A stretch of DNA of 64,000 nucleotides from an uncultured Sutterella sp. (GTDB lineage Bacteria > Pseudomonadota > Gammaproteobacteria > Burkholderiales > Burkholderiaceae_F), in assembly GCA_900757865.1 (NCBI GenBank), contig CAAEPH010000051.1:7858-71857 (forward strand), in the 5' to 3' direction. Made by a program: the position numbers and the translations under genes. How positions within the stretch are numbered: the first letter of the stretch is position 1; every line of letters starts with the position of its first letter. The notes under the pieces were generated by a model. That model worked only from the letters and a program-made list of their open reading frames with translations. It did not search any database and was not told the origin of the DNA. Below are positions 7,542-46,699 of the stretch, piece by piece.

Positions 7542-8255
7542 ATGTTCAAACATCCTCGCCCGGTACTAGTCATTGACAACGACCTCGAGTTTTTGGCGTT
7601 GATCGTCGATTTCTTAGTGCTCGAGGGATTTCACCCGTATTTCGCTTCCACTTTTCAACAGGCTACAACCGTTTTAGAGTCAACTGAAGTGGATGCCATC
7701 GTCTGTCGAGAAGATTTGCCTGAAGGGAAAACGCTAGATTGGCTAGCAGAGCTCACTCAAAACTCACAAACTCCTCTGCAAAACCTCCCCATCCTTTTCC
7801 TGCTCACAAACCCCAGTAACAAGACCAATGTTGTGCCTAAGGAAAAGTACAACATTAGCAAAGCTTATCAACAGCCTTGGTCATTAAAAAACATTGCGCA
7901 AGACCTGCGACAAATGTTGTCGAAAACACAGACTGGTGTGACTCTTATCGCGAATCGCGAAGTGGGTCCCATCTGTATGGACTTGGTTAAGCGCCAATTA
8001 CGCATCAACGGTAAGCTCGTCCCAGTGACGAATACAGAGTTCACCATTCTGGAAGTTCTGATCAACAAGGTAGGCGTCGCTGTTCCTAAAGACGAAATTT
8101 ATCAAAAGGTGCTTGGACGCTCTATGCACCGTTCAGAGCGCTCGATCGATGTCCATATCTCTGCGTTGCGACATAAAATCCAGACTGTCGATAGCGAAAT
8201 CACAATTTCAGGTATTCGTCGTGTAGGTTATCGATTAATCATTAAACAAAGCTGA
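7542..8255 (+). CDS. Atypical OmpR/PhoB-family response regulator: receiver-like domain lacking the phospho-acceptor Asp, plus a winged-helix DNA-binding domain
   Basis: The C-terminal segment (TNTEFTILEVLINKVGVAVPKDEIYQKVLGRSMHRSERSIDVHISALRHKI...RRVGYRL) is a trans_reg_C winged helix. The N-terminal region aligns to a receiver fold, but the beta3 phospho-acceptor position reads VDAIVCREDLP, with Arg or Glu where the Asp should be. No histidine kinase is adjacent. Confidence 0.7.
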   Translation: MFKHPRPVLVIDNDLEFLALIVDFLVLEGFHPYFASTFQQATTVLESTEVDAIVCREDLPEGKTLDWLAELTQNSQTPLQNLPILFLLTNPSNKTNVVPKEKYNISKAYQQPWSLKNIAQDLRQMLSKTQTGVTLIANREVGPICMDLVKRQLRINGKLVPVTNTEFTILEVLINKVGVAVPKDEIYQKVLGRSMHRSERSIDVHISALRHKIQTVDSEITISGIRRVGYRLIIKQS

Positions 8256-8287
8256 TTTCATCCGCTCAGCGACAACCCCATTAAAGC

Positions 8288-8328
8288 AAAAGCCCAGTTC
8301 TGTTTTTCGCAAAAACTGGGCTTTTTAT
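8288..8328 (+). terminator. Rho-independent terminator after the regulator gene
   Basis: AAAGCCCAGTT...AACTGGGCTTTTTATTT. Confidence 0.55.
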
Positions 8329-8508
8329 TTATTCACATCGTTTTAGTTTCCTCTTTTTCAGCATGTTTTGCAAGAGTGTTTTGACATAAAGGCAATCTAA
8401 GTCAAAGAGAGTCGGCTTTCTTCTCAACCAATGGTTGTAGAGAGGCACAATAGAACTCATACGATTAGGTAAGAACCTAATGAAGCTTTTTTCATTGAGG
8501 GGAACGCT

Positions 8509-10557
8509 ATGAGCAATTATTTAACCAAGGACCTCCGAACCGTCGCTCTTGTAGGACATGGATCTTGTGGAAAAACGTCATTGATTGAGGCAATGCTATA
8601 TCGCTCAGGCATGATCCCCGAACTTGGCAGTGTTGAACGTGGGAATACCATGTGCGACAACGACCCTCTAGAAAAACAAGTTCAACACTCCATCCGCCTA
8701 GCCGTGGCCCACATAGATACAGCCATGCCTGACTTAACGCCCGTGCGTATCCATGTTTTGGATACTCCGGGCTATGCTGACTATTTCGGGCAAGACCTCT
8801 CTGCATTAGATGCCGTCAAATCCGTTTGCGCCGTGATTGACGCGACCAAAGGGGTCGAGTTGCTAACCCGGCGTATGATGGAGGTCGCCAAAGAACGTGG
8901 ACTCTGTCGGATGATCGCCATCAACAAATTCGAAGATCCTAACGTTGACCTTGAAGCCTTGCTCTTGGAGCTTCAAGAAACCTGGGGAGAAGGTGTACTT
9001 CCTATTAATCTCCCTGCTAATGGGCGAAAGATCGTGATTGACTGCTTCGATAAAGACGAAGGTGAAGCCGATATTCGAAGCGTATCTGAAGTGCACAGGG
9101 CCTTTATTGAAAAAATCATCGAAGACGATGACGAAACGCTAGAGCGTTACTTTGAAGAAGGCAGTGTCGACCCAAGAACACTGCACCCTCTTATCACCAA
9201 AGCCTTACGTGAGGGGCGAATCATACCCGTTTGTTTTGTATCAGCTAAAAACCTGATTGGCATCCGCGATTTCATGAAAGTGATTATTCGCCATCTCCCC
9301 AGTCCTGCTGAAGCCAATGACGCATTGTTTGTCACAGCAGACGGCACCCCCTATCGCACGGAACCCGACAAAGACAAACCAGTGATTGCACAAGTCTTTA
9401 AAGTGGTCAACGACCCTTATATTGGGAAAATTGGTATCTTCCGCGTCCACCAAGGCACGATCACGAAGGACTCTAATCTTTACGTAGACAGCCATAAAAA
9501 GAGCTTTAAAGCCGCTCATCCTCTATTGCTCCAGGGGAAAAATACGTCAGAAACCGACAGACTCTCTCCTGGCGATATTGGTGCTCTGGCTAAAGTAGAT
9601 GAACTTCGCTATGGCTCCGTCCTACATTCCGAAGCCGACCTTGACATTCACATGCGCCCCATTAACTTCCCCAAACCCATGTTCGGTGTGGCCGTGAAGC
9701 CAGCGCGTCGAGGTGACGAAGGACGACTCAATGAAGTGTTGGCCAAGATGCTCTCCGAGGATCCTACACTGGCTGTAGACCATGACAAAGTCCTCAATGA
9801 AACGGTCATCCGAGGCTTAACAGAAATGCATGTGAGATCCGTTCTGGATCGAATGAAGGTCGACTTTAACTTGGAGGTCGAAACCGCTACGCCTAGCCTA
9901 CCGTACCGCGAAACCATTGCCGCTCCCGCGGAAGGCCATGCACGACATAAAAAACAAACGGGTGGTACAGGTCAATTCGGCGAAGTCTATTTGCGCATTG
10001 AGCCCTTAGCACGAGGAGAAGGCTTCCAATTCGTTGATGCGGTCAAGGGTGGGGTTATTCCCTTTAATCTGATTCCCGCCGTTGAAAAGGGTGTCCGAGA
10101 AGTCATGGATTCTGGCTATTTAGCGGGCTATCCCTTACAGGATATCCGTGTAACGGTCTATGACGGCAAGAGCCATCCTGTTGATTCAAAAGAAGTCGCC
10201 TTTGTAGCCGCCGCTCGTAAAGCGTTCCTCGACGCCTTATCCAAAGCGTCCCCTCAGATTCTTGAACCGATTGTTCGCATTGACGTAGTAGCGCCTAATG
10301 CGTCCTTTGGCGATATTGCTGGAGACCTCGGGTCACGTCGAGGCCAACTCACTGGGAGCGAAATTGTCAATGATGAAATGACGGAAATTCACGCTTTGGT
10401 TCCTCTTAGTGAACTCGATGGGTATGCCACACGACTTCACGCTCTCACGCAAGGCCAAGGAGCTTGGTCTATGGAGCTCGATAGCTATCAACCCGCTCCC
10501 GCCAGCAAACAGGCTGAATTAGCCTCGCACTATACTCGAGTGGCAGAAGAGGATTAA
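8509..10557 (+). CDS. Elongation factor G-like GTPase (EF-G paralog, about 680-aa short form)
   Basis: G1 motif GHGSCGKTS, G3 motif DTPGYADYF and G4 motif NKFED are present. Domains II to V are EF-G-like (GTGQFGEVYLRIEPL, GYPLQDIRVTVYDGKSHPVDSKE). The length and domain layout match EF-G2-type paralogs. Confidence 0.8.
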   Translation: MSNYLTKDLRTVALVGHGSCGKTSLIEAMLYRSGMIPELGSVERGNTMCDNDPLEKQVQHSIRLAVAHIDTAMPDLTPVRIHVLDTPGYADYFGQDLSALDAVKSVCAVIDATKGVELLTRRMMEVAKERGLCRMIAINKFEDPNVDLEALLLELQETWGEGVLPINLPANGRKIVIDCFDKDEGEADIRSVSEVHRAFIEKIIEDDDETLERYFEEGSVDPRTLHPLITKALREGRIIPVCFVSAKNLIGIRDFMKVIIRHLPSPAEANDALFVTADGTPYRTEPDKDKPVIAQVFKVVNDPYIGKIGIFRVHQGTITKDSNLYVDSHKKSFKAAHPLLLQGKNTSETDRLSPGDIGALAKVDELRYGSVLHSEADLDIHMRPINFPKPMFGVAVKPARRGDEGRLNEVLAKMLSEDPTLAVDHDKVLNETVIRGLTEMHVRSVLDRMKVDFNLEVETATPSLPYRETIAAPAEGHARHKKQTGGTGQFGEVYLRIEPLARGEGFQFVDAVKGGVIPFNLIPAVEKGVREVMDSGYLAGYPLQDIRVTVYDGKSHPVDSKEVAFVAAARKAFLDALSKASPQILEPIVRIDVVAPNASFGDIAGDLGSRRGQLTGSEIVNDEMTEIHALVPLSELDGYATRLHALTQGQGAWSMELDSYQPAPASKQAELASHYTRVAEED

Positions 10558-11908: not shown

Positions 11909-13720
11909 ATGAGAACCGTATACTCAGGCTTGGTTGATGAAAAACTCATCGGTCAGACCGTAACGCTTTACGGCTGGGCACATCGTCGCCGTGACCACGG
12001 TGGTGTTATCTTCATCGACCTGCGAGATCGTGAAGGCCTTGTCCAAGTCGTTTGCGACCCTGATCGCCCTGACGTTTTTGCAACGGCAGATAAGTGCCGT
12101 AATGAATATTGCTTGGAAGTGGTTGGGGTAGTTCGTGCCCGTCCCGAAGGGACCAAGAATCCCTCGCTCATCTCTGGTGGTGTCGAAGTTCTTTGCCATG
12201 AGTTGAAGATTTTGAATCCTTCAGCCACACCACCGTTCCATCTCGACGACGAAAACCTGTCTGAAACAACACGTTTAACCTATCGTGTGCTCGATTTGCG
12301 TCGTCCGATGATGCAAAAGAATCTTCGTACGCGTTATCGCGCAGCGATGGCCTTCCGTAAATTCTTAGATAAGCACGGGTTTATTGATATCGAAACTCCG
12401 ATGTTAACGCGCTCCACTCCAGAAGGAGCCCGTGACTATCTCGTTCCTTCGCGTGTCCAGGATGGCTGTTTCTATGCTTTGCCACAGTCTCCTCAACTGT
12501 TTAAGCAGTTGCTAATGTGCGCTGGTTTTGACCGCTATTATCAGATTGTCAAATGCTTCCGCGATGAGGACCTTCGTGCGGACCGCCAGCCTGAATTTAC
12601 GCAGGTCGATATCGAAACCTCCTTCCTCACCATGGACGAAATTCGTGCGTTGATGGAAGAGCTCATTCGCACCGTCTTCAAAGAGGTCTTGGATGTGGAT
12701 CTCAAGAATCCCTTCCCTGTCATGCTCTATGATGACGCCATGTCCAAGTATGGCTCCGATAAGCCCGACCTCCGTGTGAATCTGCAACTCGTAGAAGTGA
12801 CGGATTTGGTCGCGAACTCGGCCTTTAAAGTCTTCTCTGGCGTTAAAGACTTGCACAACGGTAAAGTGGTTGCCTTACGTGTGCCTGGCGCCGCCGCCAT
12901 GCCCCGCTCCGAAATCGATACCTACACCGAGTTTGTCAAAATTTACGGAGCGAAAGGTCTTGCCTACATCAAGATCAATGATCTTGAGAAAGGTCGTGAA
13001 GGTCTGCAGAGCCCCATTGTGAAGAATCTCTCTGATGAAGAACTCAAGGGGATTCTTGACGCAACCCATGCACAAACGGGCGATGTGATCTTCTTTGGTG
13101 CCGATAAAGCCAAGATCGTTTGGGACAGTTTGGGCGCTCTCCGCCTGAAGATCGGCCATTCCGAATTTGGTAAGAAGACCGGGCTTTTCACACCAGGTTG
13201 GCAACCTCTTTGGGTAATCAACTTCCCCATGTTCGAGTACTCCGAAGAAGATCAACGCTGGGTGGCGATGCACCATCCCTTCACCAGCCCCTTGGATGGT
13301 CATGAAGACCTCTTAAACACCGATCCCGAACACGCTTACGCCAAGGCCTATGACATGGTCTTGAATGGTTGGGAAATCGGCGGTGGCTCGATCCGTATTC
13401 ACCGCGAAGATGTTCAAGAAAAGGTCTTCCGCGCCTTGAAGATTGGCCCGGAAGAAGCTCGCCAGAAATTTGGCTTCTTGCTCGACGCTTTGCAGTTTGG
13501 TGCGCCACCTCATGGTGGTCTTGCCTTCGGGTTAGACCGCATCGTTACCATGATGTGCGAAGCCGATTCCATCCGCGACGTGATCGCCTTCCCGAAGACG
13601 CAGCGTGCACAGTGCTTGCTAACACAAGCGCCTGCCGAAGTTGAAGAAAAGCAACTCCGAGAATTGCATATTCGTCTTCGTAACGAACCGAAGAAGGCTC
13701 ATGACATTGCTGGTCAATAA
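11909..13720 (+). CDS. aspS: Aspartate--tRNA ligase
   Basis: 603 aa with the anticodon-binding OB fold ([26 protein letters not shown]) and class II motifs ([35 protein letters not shown]). Confidence 0.95.
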
Positions 13721-13737
13721 CTAAGTTTGAGCTGGCT

Positions 13738-13772
13738 AAAGTGGCGCGAAATACTTTGCGCCACTTTTTTTC
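13738..13772. terminator. Bidirectional terminator shared by aspS and the convergent primase-like gene
   Basis: AAAGTGGCGC-loop-GCGCCACTTTTTTT. Confidence 0.6.
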
Positions 13773-13782
13773 ACTGTTGTGA

Positions 13783-14775
13783 TTAGTGTCTTAACAAGAC
13801 ATCATTCCAATCCCAGCCTTGTTGTTCAGGAATTTTTATCGTCACCTGTTTTTCTGGATAGAGACGATGCCAAGTCTGTGCCAATTGCCAGGCCGCCGCT
13901 TGACCGCTATAACTGGCGTCGTTATCACCAAAAATCACCAGATGTTCTACACATGTAGGCAGAGTGTCTACATTCTGAAATCCATTTAAACACACTGCAC
14001 TCCACGTTGGTACACCAAAGAGTTGCGCTGCCGAAAGCGCTGTTTCAATGCCTTCTGCGACGCCAAGTGTTCGTCCAGGTTCATAGAGCTGAATCCAGCC
14101 GCCTTTAATCGGTCCTCTACAGAGTTTTTTGGGGCTATTCACAGGTGCTTTAGCACCGTCCACACGCAGATAAGTTCGATGAACATTGATCAGGTGGTCT
14201 TCTAGGTCGGTTAGACGAGCCAACATAGCAGGCCAAGCCTCATGAGCGACAACCGTATCGTCTTCCTTCTCCCAGTAGTCTAATAATGGTGAAAATCGTA
14301 AAACATCGCGTTGCAAAAGCTCATCAGACAAGGCAATGCCTCTATGTGCGAGATAAGAAAGTACAGGATTCGTAGCTGTCAGGGTTTTGAGAGTAATCGC
14401 GTGTTCCCATAAGTCATCGATCACCCGACTTGTTACGTCATCCGTTTTTCTATGAGGCCCTCCTTGTTTTGGGCTCACCTCAACATTTAATGCTCTACCC
14501 AAAAAGATGAGAGTTTGCCAAAACGTTTCATGCCGGTATTGGCGGATAAGATCAATCCCATCACCATGCCCGCATCCGCGGCAAAACCAATACCCATCTT
14601 CCGATTTGGGGTAGAAACTAAAACGATCGCGCCCTCCACATAAAGGGCAAGGACGGTTGACTTTTCGAAAGTGAGAGCCATTCATCCCAGCCTGCTCAAA
14701 TAAATGAACCCATTGCCCACGTGCTCGTCTTTTTATTTCCCCTAAAACATCGGAAAATTCTTGCGACATTCCCAC
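13783..14775 (-). CDS. Phage/plasmid P4-alpha-type primase module: primase-helicase zinc-binding ribbon plus Toprim domain, with no helicase domain
   Basis: CPLCGGRDRFSF...CRGCGHGDGIDL matches the Prim_Zn_Ribbon pattern. A Toprim core follows (GVAEGIETALSAAQLFGVPTWSAVCLNG ... LVIFGDNDASYSGQAAAWQLA, the E...DxD motif). Confidence 0.7.
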   Translation of the reverse strand: MGMSQEFSDVLGEIKRRARGQWVHLFEQAGMNGSHFRKVNRPCPLCGGRDRFSFYPKSEDGYWFCRGCGHGDGIDLIRQYRHETFWQTLIFLGRALNVEVSPKQGGPHRKTDDVTSRVIDDLWEHAITLKTLTATNPVLSYLAHRGIALSDELLQRDVLRFSPLLDYWEKEDDTVVAHEAWPAMLARLTDLEDHLINVHRTYLRVDGAKAPVNSPKKLCRGPIKGGWIQLYEPGRTLGVAEGIETALSAAQLFGVPTWSAVCLNGFQNVDTLPTCVEHLVIFGDNDASYSGQAAAWQLAQTWHRLYPEKQVTIKIPEQQGWDWNDVLLRH

Positions 14776-14955
14776 TCCCTTCGACTGACCAAGTTAATAA
14801 AGATCCTTCTTAGAAACAGTCATTGGATGGCAAGAGAGGGGTTGACTCCCATGAGATCTAAAGACTATTCCCTATTTAGTCCATGTTAACATACTGTTCT
14901 TCAGAGCTAACTAAGGAAAGTCCCAATGCTCTATTCATGACTTTTAGGCTAAGTG

Positions 14956-15204
14956 TTAATGAGACTCTATGGGAGCCTCTTTTTCTTTGTAATCACAAAC
15001 TAAGCTATTCACCAGATTATGCAGAGCCTGTTTATAGGCTTCTTTTCCAACACCAAGCAATACGGCGTCTTCATACATCGTTTGCAGAACATCACGAGCC
15101 TCTTCCCAATTTTCATTCAGGACTTTAACGCTCTCTGTGCATGAAACCGTTGTCCCATCTACGCGTAACCAGCGGATAGGGCATGTCTTTTTTTCGTTCG
15201 TCAT
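14956..15204 (-). CDS. Hypothetical 82-aa protein, translationally coupled to the upstream aldolase gene
   Basis: Its start overlaps the aldolase stop in an ATGA junction. It shares no antisense overlap with another gene. I do not recognise a family. Confidence 0.4.
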   Translation of the reverse strand: MTNEKKTCPIRWLRVDGTTVSCTESVKVLNENWEEARDVLQTMYEDAVLLGVGKEAYKQALHNLVNSLVCDYKEKEAPIESH

Positions 15205-15893
15205 TCTTGTTCAGAATCCTTCACGACTTGACCATAAGTCTTAAACTTTTCAAGTACTTTCCTCATTTCCATTTCCGATAGAAGCTCGACCGAACCCAAT
15301 CCACGCACAATCACGTATTGATGAGCTAAGTTCTCCACCTCATTGGCCAAACTGATAGCCTCATGAAGCGTTTTCCCACACACTAAAACGCCATGGTGTG
15401 CAAGCAGTGTCGCTTTTTTATCTGCTAGCGCTTTAGCCGCTCTGGTGGCCAACTCACTGGAGCCAAATGTGGCATAAGGAGTCACATCTATACTCATGCC
15501 TCCAGCCGCTGCCACCATGTAATGAAAAGGAGGAATACTGAGACCTTGGCAAGCTAAAGCCGTTGCATATAAAGAGTGCGTGTGCACGACGGCAGCCATA
15601 TCTGCTCGCTGTCGATAAACCCTCGCATGCATTTCCCATTCGCTTGAGGGACGATAAGGTCCTAGAGCTCGATTAACGGATAGCGGATCGTTTAAAGGCA
15701 ACCAAACAAGAGCTGACTCGGTCAATTCTTCATAAGGAAGCCCGCTCGGCGTAATCCAGAATCCATCTTGGCCGTCCTCATTTGTGGTGCGAGCTGACAC
15801 ATTACCTGACTTGTTGCAATTTAGACCTAACCGACTCAACCGAAGGGCCGCTTCGACAATATGAGTCTTCAGGTTCTGAGTATCGTCCGACAT
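15201..15893 (-). CDS. Class II aldolase, FucA-like: probable 5-methylthioribulose-1-P/5-deoxyribulose-1-P aldolase of the DHAP shunt (Ald2-type), or MtnB-like
   Basis: Strong resemblance to L-fuculose-phosphate aldolase along the whole length (RLGLNCNKSGNVSAR, AAVVHTHSLYATALA, HYMVAAAGG, LLAHHGVLVCGKTLHEAISLANEVENLAHQY, VLEKFKTYG). Start taken at MSDDTQ at 15893 by alignment to FucA. Its start is 1 nt downstream of the mtnA stop. Confidence 0.75.
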   Translation of the reverse strand: MSDDTQNLKTHIVEAALRLSRLGLNCNKSGNVSARTTNEDGQDGFWITPSGLPYEELTESALVWLPLNDPLSVNRALGPYRPSSEWEMHARVYRQRADMAAVVHTHSLYATALACQGLSIPPFHYMVAAAGGMSIDVTPYATFGSSELATRAAKALADKKATLLAHHGVLVCGKTLHEAISLANEVENLAHQYVIVRGLGSVELLSEMEMRKVLEKFKTYGQVVKDSEQE

Positions 15894-15894
15894 C

Positions 15895-16983
15895 TCAATC
15901 TTCTTTGGTAATAGGGGGCATTCTAGAGACAAGGTCTGTTGGGGAATAAATTCCTGTCTCTGTAATAATAGCCGTCACAAATCGATTATGAGTCACATCA
16001 AAAGCTGGATTAGATGTTGCGGTATTCGCGGGAGCCAATTGCACACTCGAGAGCTGCCCCTGTGAGTCCAGTCCTTTGATCTGCAAAACCTCTTCACTAG
16101 CTCGATCTTCAATGGGTATCTCCCGTTTGCCATCATTTAAGGTCCAATCAATCGTACTTTCCGGTGCTGCAACATAAAATGGGATGTCATTGTCCTTGGC
16201 TGCCAAGGCCTTCAGGTAAGTGCCAATCTTATTAGCGACATCTCCACGGCGAGTAATGCGGTCAGCGCCAACAATAACCATATCCACATCACCGTGTTGC
16301 ATCAGTTGACCACCAGCATTATCCACAATCAAAGTGTGTGGAATGCCTTGCTCAGCCAACTCCCAAGCGGTTAATAAACCCTGGTTGCGGGGACGTGTCT
16401 CGTCTACCCACACATGCACAGGGACTCCTTGCTCAAACGCCAGATATATGGGAGAGAGCGCGGTTCCATAATCCACCGTAGCTAACCAGCCAGCATTACA
16501 GTGCGTCAACACATTGACTGGGCGACGGCATTTGCGGTATTTGTCAGCAATTAATGTGGCTCCTATTTCACCAATCTTGCGGCATGTCAACACATCCGCT
16601 TGTGTCAATTCTTCGGCCATCTTAAGAGCTACGTCTAAACGCTGTTGAGGATCTCGAGGCAAAAGATACCCCAGCATTTTTCTAACACCCCAAGACAAGT
16701 TCACCGCAGTAGGGCGAGCGTTCATGATGACATCAGCAACGCGAATTAAAGCATCGTTATTGGGATTTTCACGAACCGCCAACACAACAGCCCAGATCCC
16801 CGTAATACCAATCAGAGGGGCCCCACGAACTCTCATGGTTTTGATGGCCTCTACACAATCTCGCCAATCGTTCAACTCTCTGAATTTCAATTCATAGGGA
16901 AGAAGCGTTTGATCAATAATTTCGACGGCCTCTCCATTACGTATGGACCGAATTGTGCGACGACATTGTCCGCCTACTTTCAT
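15895..16983 (-). CDS. mtnA: S-methyl-5-thioribose-1-phosphate isomerase
   Basis: eIF-2B alpha/beta/delta-type isomerase motifs (RGAPLIGITG, GADRITRRGDVANKIGTY, VDETRPRNQG). Start taken at MKVGG, which has a GGAG SD site. Confidence 0.85.
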   Translation of the reverse strand: MKVGGQCRRTIRSIRNGEAVEIIDQTLLPYELKFRELNDWRDCVEAIKTMRVRGAPLIGITGIWAVVLAVRENPNNDALIRVADVIMNARPTAVNLSWGVRKMLGYLLPRDPQQRLDVALKMAEELTQADVLTCRKIGEIGATLIADKYRKCRRPVNVLTHCNAGWLATVDYGTALSPIYLAFEQGVPVHVWVDETRPRNQGLLTAWELAEQGIPHTLIVDNAGGQLMQHGDVDMVIVGADRITRRGDVANKIGTYLKALAAKDNDIPFYVAAPESTIDWTLNDGKREIPIEDRASEEVLQIKGLDSQGQLSSVQLAPANTATSNPAFDVTHNRFVTAIITETGIYSPTDLVSRMPPITKED

Positions 16984-17223
16984 ATAGCCACTCCATTGCA
17001 CTGTCTAGGGGAAAAATGGGTTGAGCTCGTTTGCTTACGCGTTATTCACACCCTATGCGCTCCGTCTATCCTCAGTCAAAAAAGCGCAAACTCACTCCTT
17101 TATTCATTGTATAGCCTCAAGTTGACATTGACGAGTGTTGTAACCTTTGCTCTCTTGCTCTGCCATTGTACTGATCCGTACTTTTTCACTTATTTATAAT
17201 AGATAATCAACCTAACTTCTTTT

Positions 17224-19809
17224 GTGAGCGTTGTCATGACCACCTCTGCTCTCAGACAAGCCCTTGTACCCCAATCCATCGCAATCTTGGGGGCTAGTGA
17301 TAAGCCTAATCACCGTGGCACAGCGTTTTGGGATGCTTTGAGACAGCCTAACCCACCTTACCAGCTCTTTGCAGTCAATCCCAAATATGACACGCTACAA
17401 GACGCTCCTTGTTATCGTTCGTTAACGCATGTGCCTGAACCCATTTTGACGGTTCTCAGTACGCCTTCCCCTCAACGCGTTTTAAGTACTCTTGCCAATC
17501 TCCCCTCTTCTTGCCAGTTGTTAGTGCTCTGTGATGAATATCCTCAACTATGGAACCTTCCTATCTATCGAGAACTGTTAGCTCAAATTCGACAACAAAA
17601 CACACGAATCTTGGGGCCGGGTTCTTGGGGTTATATGATTCCAGGAGCCAAACTCAATTTAAGCGTTTGGGCAACCCTACCTAAACCTGGCAATATTGCG
17701 CTTTTTACCTATGCCGGCGACATTGCTGACATCGTTTTAAATCGTCTTTCCTCCTCGGGACAAGGTTTTTCCATCGTGGCAACTCTCGGACAAACGAGGG
17801 ATATCTCCATGTCCGAGTTAATACATACTCAAGCCGTTGAGCGCAATACAAAAGTTATTGCTCTACAGCTCGCCTCGCCTCTCGCAGAACCGCGAAACCT
17901 ATTGAAAGCAATTAGAGATACGGTAACGCGTAAAACGATCATTGTCTTCACGGGACTTCTATCGCAAGATGAGCAACAGCTTCTTACCCCTGCTTTAAAG
18001 GCGCTAGGGGCTCATGTCTGTGATGATGTAGATGGATTCATCGATAGCATCACGGTCTTAGCAGGCAATCGCTTACCCAAACAAAACCACTTAGCCATCC
18101 TAACGACCAGTGAAACCCTAGCAAAATTGGGGCTACAAAACGCAACCAAGGAGCGCATTCCATTAGCTAGATTGTGTGAGAGTACTGTAAAAACGCTGCG
18201 AAACAACGCTTTAACTATCTCCTTCAATAACCCGATAATATCGCGCTCGCTAGATAACGCCATCAAATCGCTCCCAGTACTTCTGCAAGATGAGAGTCTA
18301 GATGCGCTTTTGTTGGTTTTGCATACACCTTCATCCAGCAAGGACACCAGTAAGCTACTGCAACATTTCGTTAAATTGGCAATAGGGTGCACCAAACCGA
18401 TCCTTTGTTGTTGCCTCAATGTTTCTTTATACGAACAATTGGCTGCGCTTCTGCAAAAGTCGTCAAACGTATCTTTGTCTCTTTTTCCTTCTCTTGAGAG
18501 AGCTTTAGTTGCTTTTGATCGAATCGTCACTCAGCGCTACCTAAAGGTGCAACACCAACTCATACCTCAGTCCAGACCGAGTCTTGTTAATACAGCCAGG
18601 ATAGCTACATTAAGAGAGCACATTAAAGAGCATTTAGCGCAAGACCGTTTCGTCCTCTCAGCACCAGAAACCCTCACCTTTCTTTCCAACGCCTCACTGC
18701 CCTTAGCTCGAGCACAAATAGGACATTCGCTCGAAGAATGTATCGACCTACTCAACTCAGCAAAAGGCCCCATGCGTGTACGTCTTCTTGCGCAAGGCTA
18801 TGAAGAAAGTTTACCTGAACTCCTGGTGACAGACAGCCAAGACTTTGAAAAGCTGTGGCATCAAGCATTAGAGCATATTCATCGCCAGCAGGAACAAGCA
18901 GCACCTCTTCAAGCTGTCATCTTTAGTGACCGATCCTGTGAACTAACGTCCGTCAGAGATCTAAACATCTCTTTTTATCATCAGCTAGGACTAGGGAAAG
19001 TCTGTGCGATAGAAAGTGCAGAAGGCACTCTACTTTACTCTTGCTTTCTGCCCTTAAGCTATAACTCCCTTTTGCACCATTTCGCCAAACACCCCTACTG
19101 GCAGGCCTTGACACCAACAGTGAAAGAAAAATTAGCCGACAGTCTTTGCACATTAAGTGACTTTCTTTGTGCGATTCCTGCCGTTTCGCGTCTTCACCTT
19201 CCCATTCGGGTAACTGCCAACCATCTTTTCCCGTCGCTCCCCTGTATGCGGTTAAGTGCTCAGAACTTACAGAACGATGCAGATTTTTCTCATTTGTTGT
19301 TTGCCGCACCTCCTCTTGAAGAGTGGACACAACAACAAACTCCAAAAGGGTCTCTGTTCTTGCGACCACTCTTTGAGAGTGACTTCGATCGACTGGCGCG
19401 TTTTCTTAGGCGACTTTCCGACAAAAGTCGATATTTACGATTCCATACGCGCAGTCAACTCACTGACAAACAGATTCTTGACAGTTTTACCTATAATCCT
19501 GGCGACGGACAAGTTTGGGTATTATGCGACGAACATGAGATCCATGCTCTAGCTAGTTGGAGTCGGTTAGATCAGAGCGAACAAGCCGAATTTGGCATTG
19601 TCGTCGAAGATGCTTGGCAACGCGCTGGACTCGCAACTGTTCTTATGAATAAACTGGTCACTCATTCCAAACGGCATGGGATCACTTCCCTTGTAGGGTT
19701 CGTCCTTAAGGGCAATGAGGGCATGCAAAACTTTCTGCACCGTCAGGGTTTTGTTCGTACTCCCACTCACACGCCTGATACCGAAACCTGGCTTTACACT
19801 ATTCCTTAA
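17224..19809 (+). CDS. pat: Protein lysine acetyltransferase Pat/PatZ-type: NDP-forming acyl-CoA synthetase-like domain fused to a C-terminal GNAT domain
   Basis: 861 aa. The N-terminal CoA-binding domain (SIAILGASDKPNHRGTAFW) aligns with E. coli PatZ/YfiQ. The C-terminal GNAT domain (RYLRFHTRSQLTDKQI...FGIVVEDAWQRAGLATVLMNKLVTHSKRHGITSLVGFVL) closely matches the PatZ C-terminus. Confidence 0.85.
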   Translation: MSVVMTTSALRQALVPQSIAILGASDKPNHRGTAFWDALRQPNPPYQLFAVNPKYDTLQDAPCYRSLTHVPEPILTVLSTPSPQRVLSTLANLPSSCQLLVLCDEYPQLWNLPIYRELLAQIRQQNTRILGPGSWGYMIPGAKLNLSVWATLPKPGNIALFTYAGDIADIVLNRLSSSGQGFSIVATLGQTRDISMSELIHTQAVERNTKVIALQLASPLAEPRNLLKAIRDTVTRKTIIVFTGLLSQDEQQLLTPALKALGAHVCDDVDGFIDSITVLAGNRLPKQNHLAILTTSETLAKLGLQNATKERIPLARLCESTVKTLRNNALTISFNNPIISRSLDNAIKSLPVLLQDESLDALLLVLHTPSSSKDTSKLLQHFVKLAIGCTKPILCCCLNVSLYEQLAALLQKSSNVSLSLFPSLERALVAFDRIVTQRYLKVQHQLIPQSRPSLVNTARIATLREHIKEHLAQDRFVLSAPETLTFLSNASLPLARAQIGHSLEECIDLLNSAKGPMRVRLLAQGYEESLPELLVTDSQDFEKLWHQALEHIHRQQEQAAPLQAVIFSDRSCELTSVRDLNISFYHQLGLGKVCAIESAEGTLLYSCFLPLSYNSLLHHFAKHPYWQALTPTVKEKLADSLCTLSDFLCAIPAVSRLHLPIRVTANHLFPSLPCMRLSAQNLQNDADFSHLLFAAPPLEEWTQQQTPKGSLFLRPLFESDFDRLARFLRRLSDKSRYLRFHTRSQLTDKQILDSFTYNPGDGQVWVLCDEHEIHALASWSRLDQSEQAEFGIVVEDAWQRAGLATVLMNKLVTHSKRHGITSLVGFVLKGNEGMQNFLHRQGFVRTPTHTPDTETWLYTIP

Positions 19810-35286: not shown

Positions 35287-35364
35287 AGGGGTATAGCCAA
35301 GCTGGCCCAAGGCATCGGATTTTGATTCCGACATTCGAAGGTTCGAATCCTTCTACCCCTGCCA
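35287..35364 (+). tRNA. tRNA-Gln (anticodon TTG)
   Basis: Cloverleaf read by hand. The acceptor stem pairs AGGGGTA with TACCCCT. The anticodon stem TCGGA/TCCGA carries the loop TTTTGAT, giving anticodon TTG. The T-arm is GAAGG-TTCGAAT-CCTTC, followed by discriminator G and an encoded CCA. Confidence 0.85.
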
Positions 35365-44540: not shown

Positions 44541-44728
44541 TTTCCCTGCTCCACAAAAACACTCCAGAGGTTTCATAAAAAAGACAACAGGGTAATGAGT
44601 GTTTTTCACAGAACCCCTTTAGGTAAGCCTAACTTCTCGGCTCTATTCTCAGCTCGTGCTAACATCCTCTTAAACTCATTTATTTACCTTTTTCTACTCC
44701 TAAAGCGATGCTGTCTTGGCAACTTTCT

Positions 44729-46699
44729 ATGAAGCGACTTCTTCGAAGCTTATTACTGTTTTTCTTAGCCTTAGCCTCTTTAGGATTAATCATTGTGATC
44801 TCCTTGCACTGGCTCATTACGCCAAGTCATGTATATGAACGCATTGAATCATCACTGCAGCAGGAGCTTCACCTTTCGCTCCAGTCCGATGGGCTTCCTT
44901 CCGTAAAACTACTCCCTCGTCTAAGCATTACTTTCCCTCGAGGGCAACTCCGGTCCTTGGACAATCCGCAATGGCAATTGACTTATGCCAAGACTGTCAT
45001 CACAATGCCAACGTTGGCCTATTGGGCAAAAACTCCTAAGTTGACGCAGGTTGATTTTTCTAATGCCACCCTAACCACTGATGAGTCTTTTTCCCTGTCT
45101 AACTCATCCGTCCAGGAGTTTTTAAAGTACCCTATTGAACACATAAATTTACTGAATTTTAATGTGAGAGATAGTGACTGGGCAGCTCAGCACCTCACGC
45201 TCCATTTGGACACCCTTCCCTCGTCTTTACGGCAATTGGATTTTGAGGGAGAACTGCTCATTCACAACCAACGCGTTCACACGCAGCTCAAGGGACTTCT
45301 TCCTGGCGTATCTCAAATGGCTGAGTCCGTGCTCCCAATTGAACAGTTGAAAGGAGAAATGAAAGGGACGAACTGGCAAATCACGATTGAAAAAGGGCGA
45401 ATTCCAGATGCTTTAAACACTCCAGAGCAGTGGCAAGAATTGCAAGGGAACGCACAACACACTCGATTTGGCGAGTTCTTTTGGCAAAGCCAATCTCTTC
45501 TCTGCACATTTAATCGCCTACATCTCCATGACGCACAACTCACGCCTGTCGGAGCAACCGCGGTAAATTGGGGACTCACTCTATCGGGAGATATTGACTG
45601 GAAGGACTCAAGCCTTCTCGTTCCCAAGCTGATTCTCCAAACCTCACCAGACACATCATGGGGTACGGCCTTTCTTTCTGGGTTCGCGAAATATGATCTA
45701 ACAAATCAAGCCTTTAATCTATCTTTATCGGGCCTCTTACAAGATACTCCTGCATCCATTCAATTAGAGCGACAAGGGAGCACTGTATCTCTTGTTTCTC
45801 CTATCCAAGGTCATATTGAAGTCGCTCGATTCCCTGCCGTATCGCCCACATCCGCACTCAAAGCGATCGATATGCTTTGGCCTGAATCTGCAGAGATTGG
45901 CATCAAAATCCATACGCTAGATCAACCTCCCCTCAATAACATAGAGGGAAAACTACGTATTGCTCATAACGAGCTGTCCTCTGTTGCACCTGGTCTACAG
46001 GCTGATATCTTGGGAAAACCTGCCCTACTGACTTTTTCTATCGCTCGCGATGCTCACTGGCAAGCCAATCTAGAAACCTACCATACCGAACTTCAAGCGC
46101 TTGGATGGCCTCTCCCCCTATCGGGCTTAACCAATCTTCACTTAATTGGGCAGGGATACATTGGGAAATCCTCGGATTGGAAAGGAAACTTCCTCATCCA
46201 GAGTGGGCAACTCATAGGAATCAACATCCCAGAGATCGCCCGCCTTCTCAAAGAAGAAATCCCAGTTAACCAACCTCCCGAAGTCTTTACGCACCACTCG
46301 AGAACCTCTTTCCCTAAGGCTCAAGGACACTTGAGCTTCACGACCCAAGAGGGCTGGAAACTGTCTCAACTTGTCATCCAGACATCACAATGGAACCTCA
46401 AAGCCAACGGGGATTTAACCTCTGAAAAAAGCCAAATGACCGGAGAGGTGGACCTTAAGCTCTTCGCCAAAACCGTCCCTTTACCTTTTTCGGTTTCGCA
46501 ATCTAAAGGCACACCTCCTACATGGGTAACTCAGTGGGAGAGAGCAACTGATCTGCTGCAAGAAGAAGCCGAGCAACTTCCTTGGAGTTGGGATCGTGCT
46601 AAACAAAAAGGGAAACGCTGGTGGCAGAACTTTGAACAGTGGCTCTCAACGGTCATTCCGTTTGATCTTTGGATAGAAAAGCTTCAGAGCTTTTTTTAG
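44729..46699 (+). CDS. AsmA-family envelope protein (putative)
   Basis: N-terminal TM anchor (LLLFFLALASLGLIIVISL) followed by a region that aligns in pattern with the E. coli AsmA N-terminus (P-x6-V...L-x-L-x-DG...P-x-LSI). The remainder is a large periplasmic domain. Confidence 0.55.
   Translation: MKRLLRSLLLFFLALASLGLIIVISLHWLITPSHVYERIESSLQQELHLSLQSDGLPSVKLLPRLSITFPRGQLRSLDNPQWQLTYAKTVITMPTLAYWAKTPKLTQVDFSNATLTTDESFSLSNSSVQEFLKYPIEHINLLNFNVRDSDWAAQHLTLHLDTLPSSLRQLDFEGELLIHNQRVHTQLKGLLPGVSQMAESVLPIEQLKGEMKGTNWQITIEKGRIPDALNTPEQWQELQGNAQHTRFGEFFWQSQSLLCTFNRLHLHDAQLTPVGATAVNWGLTLSGDIDWKDSSLLVPKLILQTSPDTSWGTAFLSGFAKYDLTNQAFNLSLSGLLQDTPASIQLERQGSTVSLVSPIQGHIEVARFPAVSPTSALKAIDMLWPESAEIGIKIHTLDQPPLNNIEGKLRIAHNELSSVAPGLQADILGKPALLTFSIARDAHWQANLETYHTELQALGWPLPLSGLTNLHLIGQGYIGKSSDWKGNFLIQSGQLIGINIPEIARLLKEEIPVNQPPEVFTHHSRTSFPKAQGHLSFTTQEGWKLSQLVIQTSQWNLKANGDLTSEKSQMTGEVDLKLFAKTVPLPFSVSQSKGTPPTWVTQWERATDLLQEEAEQLPWSWDRAKQKGKRWWQNFEQWLSTVIPFDLWIEKLQSFF

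Follow-up and report, generated by a model that had tools for sequence, protein, structure and literature searches.

A gene for a stand-alone DnaG-type primase was found on the minus strand (positions 13783..14769) of a 64,000-nucleotide stretch of DNA from an uncultured Sutterella sp., referred to here as the window, and was characterized by means of the ORF list, Pfam and PHROG matches, an AlphaFold2 model, Foldseek searches and dN/dS estimates. Very probably, it encodes a domesticated enzyme that was captured from a family of phage and plasmid type and has since been kept by vertical inheritance under selection. Stand-alone Toprim primases are taken to indicate phages and conjugative elements; here, such a primase is a stable part of the chromosome, under selection, throughout a genus of bacteria common in the human gut. 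What we describe is a domesticated chromosomal locus of a known enzyme family, and not a new mechanism or kind of system.

Domain architecture, fold and completeness

The ORF list gave a reading frame of 330 amino acids starting at a GTG codon (13783..14775, minus strand). The true start is likely the ATG at 14769, which is preceded by AAGGGAG at 14775-14781 and yields a protein of 328 amino acids. The database protein P0001, which has the same length (328 amino acids) and an essentially identical sequence, corresponds to the window primase and derives from human-gut metagenome contigs only. Three Pfam domains, each above its gathering score, were detected in the order Zn_Ribbon_Prim, DUF7146 and Toprim_3: a C4 zinc ribbon (PF08273; 14554..14652, minus strand, residues 42-74 of the 330-aa ORF) with an E value of 1.7e-11 and 44.7 bits against a cut-off of 23; DUF7146 (PF23639; 14095..14421, minus strand, residues 119-227) with an E value of 2.7e-19 and 69.9 bits against 27; and a Toprim domain (PF13362; 13789..14067, minus strand, residues 237-329), with the motifs EGIETA, GDND and DWND, with an E value of 6.6e-14 and 52.6 bits against 27.2. 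The combination of zinc ribbon and Toprim core noticed in the original prediction was thus borne out, both domains being above curated cut-offs, and the motifs that it had quoted, CPLCGGRDRF and CRGCGHGDG, are present. PHROG 510, annotated as 'DNA primase', matched the window protein at 1e-60. RefSeq genomes of Sutterella label the gene just 'toprim domain-containing protein'; in the literature we found no mention of DUF7146, no work on a Sutterella primase gene and no title that combined Sutterella with 'DNA primase'.

Conservation was examined in an alignment of 38 sequences (A2) that comprises both chromosomal and phage copies. The four cysteines of the zinc ribbon (Cys 43, 46, 65 and 68 of the 330-aa ORF, or C41, C44, C63 and C66 in the 328-aa numbering), which lie within the two motifs mentioned above, were invariant in all 38 homologues, as were D48 and R49, residues R143, H197 and K207 within DUF7146 (328-aa numbering) and, within the Toprim domain, E239-G240-x-E242, D282-x-D284 and D320-W-N-D323. 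A 'DaN-acidic' motif has been described as the signature of catalytically active DnaG-like primases of mobile elements (Iyer et al.; PMC5512222), and the DWND of the window protein fits this 'DaN-' synapomorphy (PMC5512222).

A sequence search of the PDB with the window protein gave no match, so a fold search was used instead. The AlphaFold2 model built on the A2 alignment had a mean pLDDT of 92.9, and its significant Foldseek matches in the PDB were DnaG-family primases in 14 out of 14 cases, covering Aquifex DnaG (ZBD+RPD), the DnaG cores of E. coli, S. aureus and M. tuberculosis, T4 gp61, Twinkle and T7 gp4 (entries 2au3, 1dd9, 4e2k, 5w33, 8dvf, 7t8c, 6n9v and 1q57 among others). Between 250 and 260 columns of the model were aligned with the DnaG catalytic cores 1dd9, 1dde and 1eqn. 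Since the fold matched DnaG-family primases only, we read DUF7146 in the model as the putative N-terminal subdomain of the primase RNA-polymerase domain. DnaG, T7 gp4 and T4 gp61, which gave the best and only significant PDB matches, share with the window protein the zinc-binding domain and the RNA-polymerase domain with Toprim, whereas sequence identity is 10-18% and the window protein has neither the C-terminal DnaB-binding domain of DnaG nor a fused helicase. Replicative DnaG was rejected as its identity given this missing C-terminal domain and the scores of the CHC2 zinc finger (PF01807; 18.1 bits, cut-off 24.9) and the DnaG equivalog (TIGR01391; 25.1 bits, cut-off 283.6), both under their cut-offs. 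No canonical dnaG was found among the large ORFs of the 64-kb window.

Among 5.8 billion proteins searched, 2014 homologues were found; of the best 120, the majority have 300-366 amino acids and the same three domains. With more than 2000 homologues sharing an architecture of 300-360 amino acids and three domains, the window protein is complete and without truncation; the end after Toprim, which had been read as a possible sign of truncation, is the normal form of the family. Nothing follows the Toprim domain, and the stop codon lies 15 nt from a terminator hairpin. Pfam confirmed the earlier statement that the protein ends at Toprim without a helicase domain. A truncated helicase pseudogene had also been proposed at 14776-14955. 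Because the primase is encoded on the minus strand, however, it is the C-terminal end that borders the aspS terminator, and the proposed region lies upstream of the gene, where no downstream helicase remnant could be located. With the C-terminus of P4 alpha and three phage SF2 helicases as queries, tblastn found no helicase remnant in 13000-15300 even at E<=10, and none near the primase when the whole window was searched.

Relatives on phages, plasmids and satellites

The family is represented by 191 records in phages and 3314 in plasmids, 2790 of the latter conjugative. Lambdoid phages use these primases together with an SF2 helicase encoded by a gene of its own: in Stx phage TL-2011c, in Pseudomonas phage YA3 and in one metagenomic phage, the gene for a primase of about 315 amino acids comes right after that for a 500-aa SF2 helicase, and the pair sits in the cI-proximal replication module. 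The Eru modules of Stx phages, including the Eru1 module of TL-2011c, have been described (PMC8951638). The primases of Stx phages with non-lambdoid replication (Eru1; TL-2011c / P13374 ORF37) and of YA3 (PHROG 510) have about 310-340 amino acids, the same three domains in the same order and the same invariant residues as the window protein, with 32-34% identity over 95% of the protein. However, their genes are phage genes that directly follow an SF2 helicase in a cI-controlled module, whereas the window copy is a vertically inherited chromosomal locus with no helicase, repressor or phage gene. The original prediction had expected a D5/DnaB-like helicase as the partner; the phage relatives use a separate SF2 helicase gene instead.

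The Toprim primases of conjugative plasmids belong to the same family, where identity to the window protein reaches 35% over 99% of its length, and have in common with it the DaN- Toprim signature (PMC5512222) and a helicase-independent architecture. Plasmid members are named 'toprim domain-containing' or 'primase-helicase zinc-binding domain' proteins. They are found near relaxase, coupling-protein and other transfer-associated genes, one copy being located a few kilobases from MobH and TraD, whereas the window has no transfer genes.

The description of the window gene as a P4-alpha-type primase module held in the sense that the window protein is a homologue of the first 300 residues of P4 alpha: residues 5-303 of P4 alpha align with the whole window protein, with 24% identity, an hhalign probability of 99.9% (E value 1.1e-32) and a BLASTP E value of 3e-14. 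Both proteins have Zn_Ribbon_Prim, Toprim_3 and a DWND at the end. In contrast to the window protein, P4 alpha does not reach the DUF7146 model, and it continues with D5_N, SF3 helicase (DUF5906) and Pox_D5 origin-binding regions, all of which are missing from the window protein. Membership in the fused primase-helicase family was rejected on the absence of this D5_N, SF3 helicase and origin-binding half. Furthermore, the integrase, attP and ori/crr iterons of P4 are all missing from the window locus.

The primase locus and its neighbours in Sutterellaceae

AspS assigns the window to Sutterella, with 91% identity to the AspS of an uncultured Sutterella and 89% to that of S. massiliensis. All Sutterella-level relatives that were recovered (L005, L006, L007, L085, L086-89, L090-91, L092-94 and L101) have a primase orthologue flanked by aspS on one side and by the co-directional orf82-mtnB-mtnA genes on the other, in the order mtnA-mtnB-orf82-[lipoprotein]-primase-[EamA]-aspS. 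Each of these relatives, but not the window, has a lipoprotein gene of about 169 codons that separates orf82 from the primase, and in some an EamA gene lies between the primase and aspS. The picture of an orphan wedged in by local insertion does not survive this result, as the orthologue occupies the same slot in all Sutterella relatives examined. In contig L103 the primase still follows mtnA-mtnB-orf84, with a different downstream neighbour and aspS not adjacent. No primase was found at the locus in L008-L010, more distant Sutterellaceae (AspS 77%) with the order aspS-lipoprotein-MFS-orf82-mtnB-mtnA. The original prediction had named, as an observation that would speak against it, the presence of the gene at this position in all relatives without flanking variation; this is largely what was seen, as the position is shared within Sutterella, with some variation in the flanks, and the gene is absent only from the more distant L008-L010.

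In the window, the convergent aspS and primase genes are separated by a hairpin (13738..13767, both strands) with folding energies of -23.2 and -19.1 kcal/mol on the two strands and a z value of about -4. Its T-tail is strong in the aspS direction only, with just UUU in the primase direction; the hairpin is an intrinsic terminator for aspS and a weaker one for the primase. Of the bidirectional terminator proposed earlier, the folding on both strands was reproduced, but the strong T-tail faces aspS only. The 186-bp spacer upstream of the primase (14770..14955, minus strand), which contains the AAGGGAG mentioned above as its ribosome-binding site, occupies the place that the lipoprotein gene has in relatives. 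Neither a consensus sigma-70-like promoter nor a terminator or coding remnant was predicted in it, with only a weak 8/12 promoter match seen by eye, and no Rfam RNA or riboswitch matched 13500-17400 at E<=1. Further upstream and co-directional with the primase lie orf82 (14956-15204), a class II aldolase/MtnB-like gene (15201-15932) and an MtnA/IF-2B gene (15895-17001), all on the minus strand, with a promoter-like site upstream of mtnA at 17134-17106. Given this site and the lack of a predicted promoter or terminator in the spacer, co-transcription of the primase with mtnA-mtnB-orf82 is plausible, and these genes (14956..17001) together with the primase as the last gene probably form one transcription unit.

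Several observations concern these neighbours. The orf82 product, a conserved protein of 82-88 amino acids that belongs to no Pfam, NCBIfam, PHROG or PADLOC family, is in Sutterellaceae always encoded after the gene for the class II aldolase (MtnB-like), whether the primase is present or not. What had been called the mtn operon (15201-17001) encodes no more than MtnA (IF-2B family) and a protein of the class II aldolase family, a pair that we presume could serve a DHAP-shunt type of 5-deoxyribose/methylthioribose salvage instead of classical methionine salvage. In contig L001, which is near-identical to the window, mtnA (7765-8872) is split into two frames of 246 and 120 amino acids, both 100% identical to the window protein, owing to either a frameshift or an assembly error.

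The lipoprotein has about 169 amino acids and a lipobox (...GCAHPQL), with a sub-threshold BamE-like match only in Pfam. Its gene was located at L086:7460-7969, L095:6891-7958, L105:5363-5875, L107:54-566 and L008:11894-12394, and is absent from the window, whose lineage lost it without trace. Chromosomal copies from related genera form a sister group (P0120, P0090 and P0110, one of them named Duodenibacillus), in which the primase lies in different core neighbourhoods, either secB-response regulator-...-primase-flavodoxin or primase-ybaK-ruvX. There, too, this lipoprotein, in one or two copies with 44-70% identity, usually comes directly before the primase. In Sutterellaceae, the two genes are thus adjacent in three chromosomal settings that are unrelated to each other, with the lipoprotein upstream. 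Burkholderiaceae chromids carry weak homologues of the lipoprotein, and genuine phage matches were not found; the lipoprotein was thus rejected as part of a mobile module and regarded as a Burkholderiales host gene. The simplest account of these arrangements, taken from gene order and sequence, would be that the primase was captured just downstream of the lipoprotein gene and stayed in its transcription unit.

This recurrent pairing with one host lipoprotein gene, together with fast evolution as in conflict genes, could also be explained if the primase fold had been recruited to a non-priming job coupled to the lipoprotein or salvage genes, for example as a Toprim nuclease, a nucleotidyl-transferase or a defence/anti-plasmid factor. 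Archaeal DnaG, a homologue of Toprim primases that acts outside replication, provides a precedent. We consider this explanation improbable. The pairing is not obligate, since the window has no lipoprotein gene and L008-L010 hold the lipoprotein without a primase at the locus; the residues that are conserved, also in the zinc ribbon and at the basic positions of the N-terminal subdomain, match those of active primases exactly and are common to the phage copies. Moreover, no PADLOC match exceeded noise (DRT models at E 0.019 and 0.047), and a defence system was rejected on these matches.

Vertical inheritance, alternative origins and possible role

In a neighbour-joining tree, all mtn-linked primases and one relocated copy formed a clade with 94% bootstrap support, and the phage copies fell outside it. 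The sister relationships (P0120/P0090 group versus plasmid group) had only 68% support, so that one capture event or two would fit the tree. Pairwise identity of the primase tracks that of the flanking genes, with Spearman coefficients of 0.89 for MtnA, 0.86 for EF-G2 and 0.83 for ECH (Pearson 0.80-0.93). The dN/dS values of the primase, which come from inter-species pairs as near-identical metagenome copies differ by 0-3 substitutions, were 0.137 at dS 0.24 and 0.091 at dS 1.5, comparable to those of the neighbouring aldolase gene and higher than those of aspS or mtnA. The primase is the fastest-evolving gene in the cluster (40-48% identity between species versus 86-91% for AspS), which indicates that constraint on it is weaker than on true housekeeping genes. 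The CoA_binding/Succ_CoA_lig/acetyltransferase gene (17224-19809, plus strand), transcribed divergently from mtnA, shows 28-30% identity across Sutterella species, with AspS at about 90%; the primase is hence not the sole fast-evolving gene at the locus.

The GC content of the primase (0.468) is close to the window mean (0.471) and its codon usage is inside the host range; the deviation in GC and codon usage suggested as a check was not seen, composition being indistinguishable from the rest of the window. The tree clade, the co-divergence with the flanks, the dN/dS of about 0.1 and this host-like composition together point to old vertical inheritance under purifying selection. On the same results and the conserved slot, a recent insertion was rejected. 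The earlier statement that hallmarks of mobile elements are missing nearby was confirmed: in the near-identical contig L001 all genes called within about 10 kb on either side are housekeeping genes (precomputed Pfam), no att-like direct repeats surround the primase gene, where only imperfect chance pairs of 14-20 nt were seen, and the only tRNA in the window, tRNA-Gln at 35287, is about 20 kb away. An integrated satellite, prophage or ICE (P4-like, PICI) was rejected, as there are no att repeats, target tRNA or element genes nearby and the flanks are conserved across species. Among the housekeeping genes of the window, a 663-aa ORF (44708-46699, plus strand) had no Pfam match at E<=1e-5.

A decaying remnant of a phage, satellite or ICE (P4/PICI-like), with integrase, att sites and helicase lost and the ORF carried as neutral cargo, would account for a family that is overwhelmingly found on phages and plasmids, for a primase that evolves faster than its neighbours and is absent from L008-L010, and for the possible truncated copies described below. 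Against this, none of the species examined has a broken ORF although the proteins diverge by 40-60%, no catalytic residue varies, dN/dS is about 0.1, composition is host-like, the primase co-diverges with the flanking genes, and neither another element gene nor a helicase fragment accompanies it; we therefore regard a remnant as quite improbable. Of the two options that the original prediction had offered, a domesticated remnant or a stand-alone primase with a host function, 'domesticated' describes the gene better. Least probable, and very much so, is that the aspS-mtn intergenic region is an insertion hotspot where different Sutterella species acquired primases separately, as the identity of only 40-48% between species and the EamA and lipoprotein genes that come and go in the flanks might suggest, because the mtn-linked copies form one clade without phage or plasmid sequences, the distances between pairs of them go with those for MtnA, EF-G2 and ECH, and the primase is linked to mtnAB even where aspS is not its neighbour (L103). 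The low identity follows from the primase being the fastest-evolving member of a vertically inherited cluster; at a conserved locus, low inter-species identity can reflect fast vertical evolution and need not reflect repeated transfer.

For the domesticated primase we propose that an ancestor of the Sutterella group would have captured one copy into its chromosome, directly downstream of the host lipoprotein gene, and that this copy would then have been inherited vertically as the last gene of a co-directional mtnA-mtnB-orf82-(lipoprotein)-primase cluster, from which the lipoprotein gene would later have been deleted in the lineage of the window. The enzyme, with a zinc ribbon for template recognition and a two-subdomain RNA-polymerase domain ending in Toprim, is predicted to be catalytically competent; it would bind ssDNA via the zinc ribbon and make short RNA primers at an active site formed by the Toprim and basic residues. 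The plasmid primases TraC of RP4 and Sog of ColIb-P9/R64, both transferred to the recipient cell, are functional paradigms, likened here by description and not by sequence. By analogy with Sog and TraC, the window enzyme may synthesize short RNA primers on ssDNA and need no helicase dedicated to it. Since both a helicase domain and a DnaB-binding domain are missing, it would presumably act distributively, a mechanism derived from knowledge of the family. It may benefit the host, for example by auxiliary or repair priming or by handling incoming ssDNA, and its rapid evolution hints at a conflict-related role.

More tentatively, and less likely than not, Sutterellaceae might keep it as a second, helicase-independent cellular primase of phage or plasmid origin, fixed before the genera diverged, with a host function beyond that of DnaG, and located beside the lipoprotein and MtnA/aldolase genes with which it is probably co-transcribed; possible functions are priming of ssDNA gaps or incoming DNA, or a conflict-related role. 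The use that a cell may have for a second primase without a helicase could be studied at this locus as a natural example. The primase may be dispensable, considering its absence at the locus in L008-L010 and the presence of contigs in which the copy is cut at the Toprim boundary. In one such case (L109:370-1662; P0097, P0098 and P0100), the first 243 primase residues are fused to a radical-SAM-like C-terminal part in a protein of 430 amino acids. The fusion point is GIAE at the start of Toprim, the genes that follow encode DUF2344, L31 and HflX, and GC is about 0.63 on both sides; this type represents either a lineage that lost Toprim by rearrangement or a recurrent assembly chimera.

The best 'phage' match to the primase, with 45% identity, was rejected as such. 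It lies on MT836472.1 (L085), deposited as 'UNVERIFIED: Bacteriophage sp.', a 10-kb sequence that is a mislabelled fragment of a Sutterella chromosome with the gene order SBP-ECH-CoA-ligase/acetyltransferase-mtnA-mtnB-orf82-lipoprotein-primase. The fragment was probably classed as viral on account of its primase gene. The presence of the primase as a stable chromosomal gene, of which this fragment is one case, cautions against using the three-domain architecture as a marker of prophages or ICEs.
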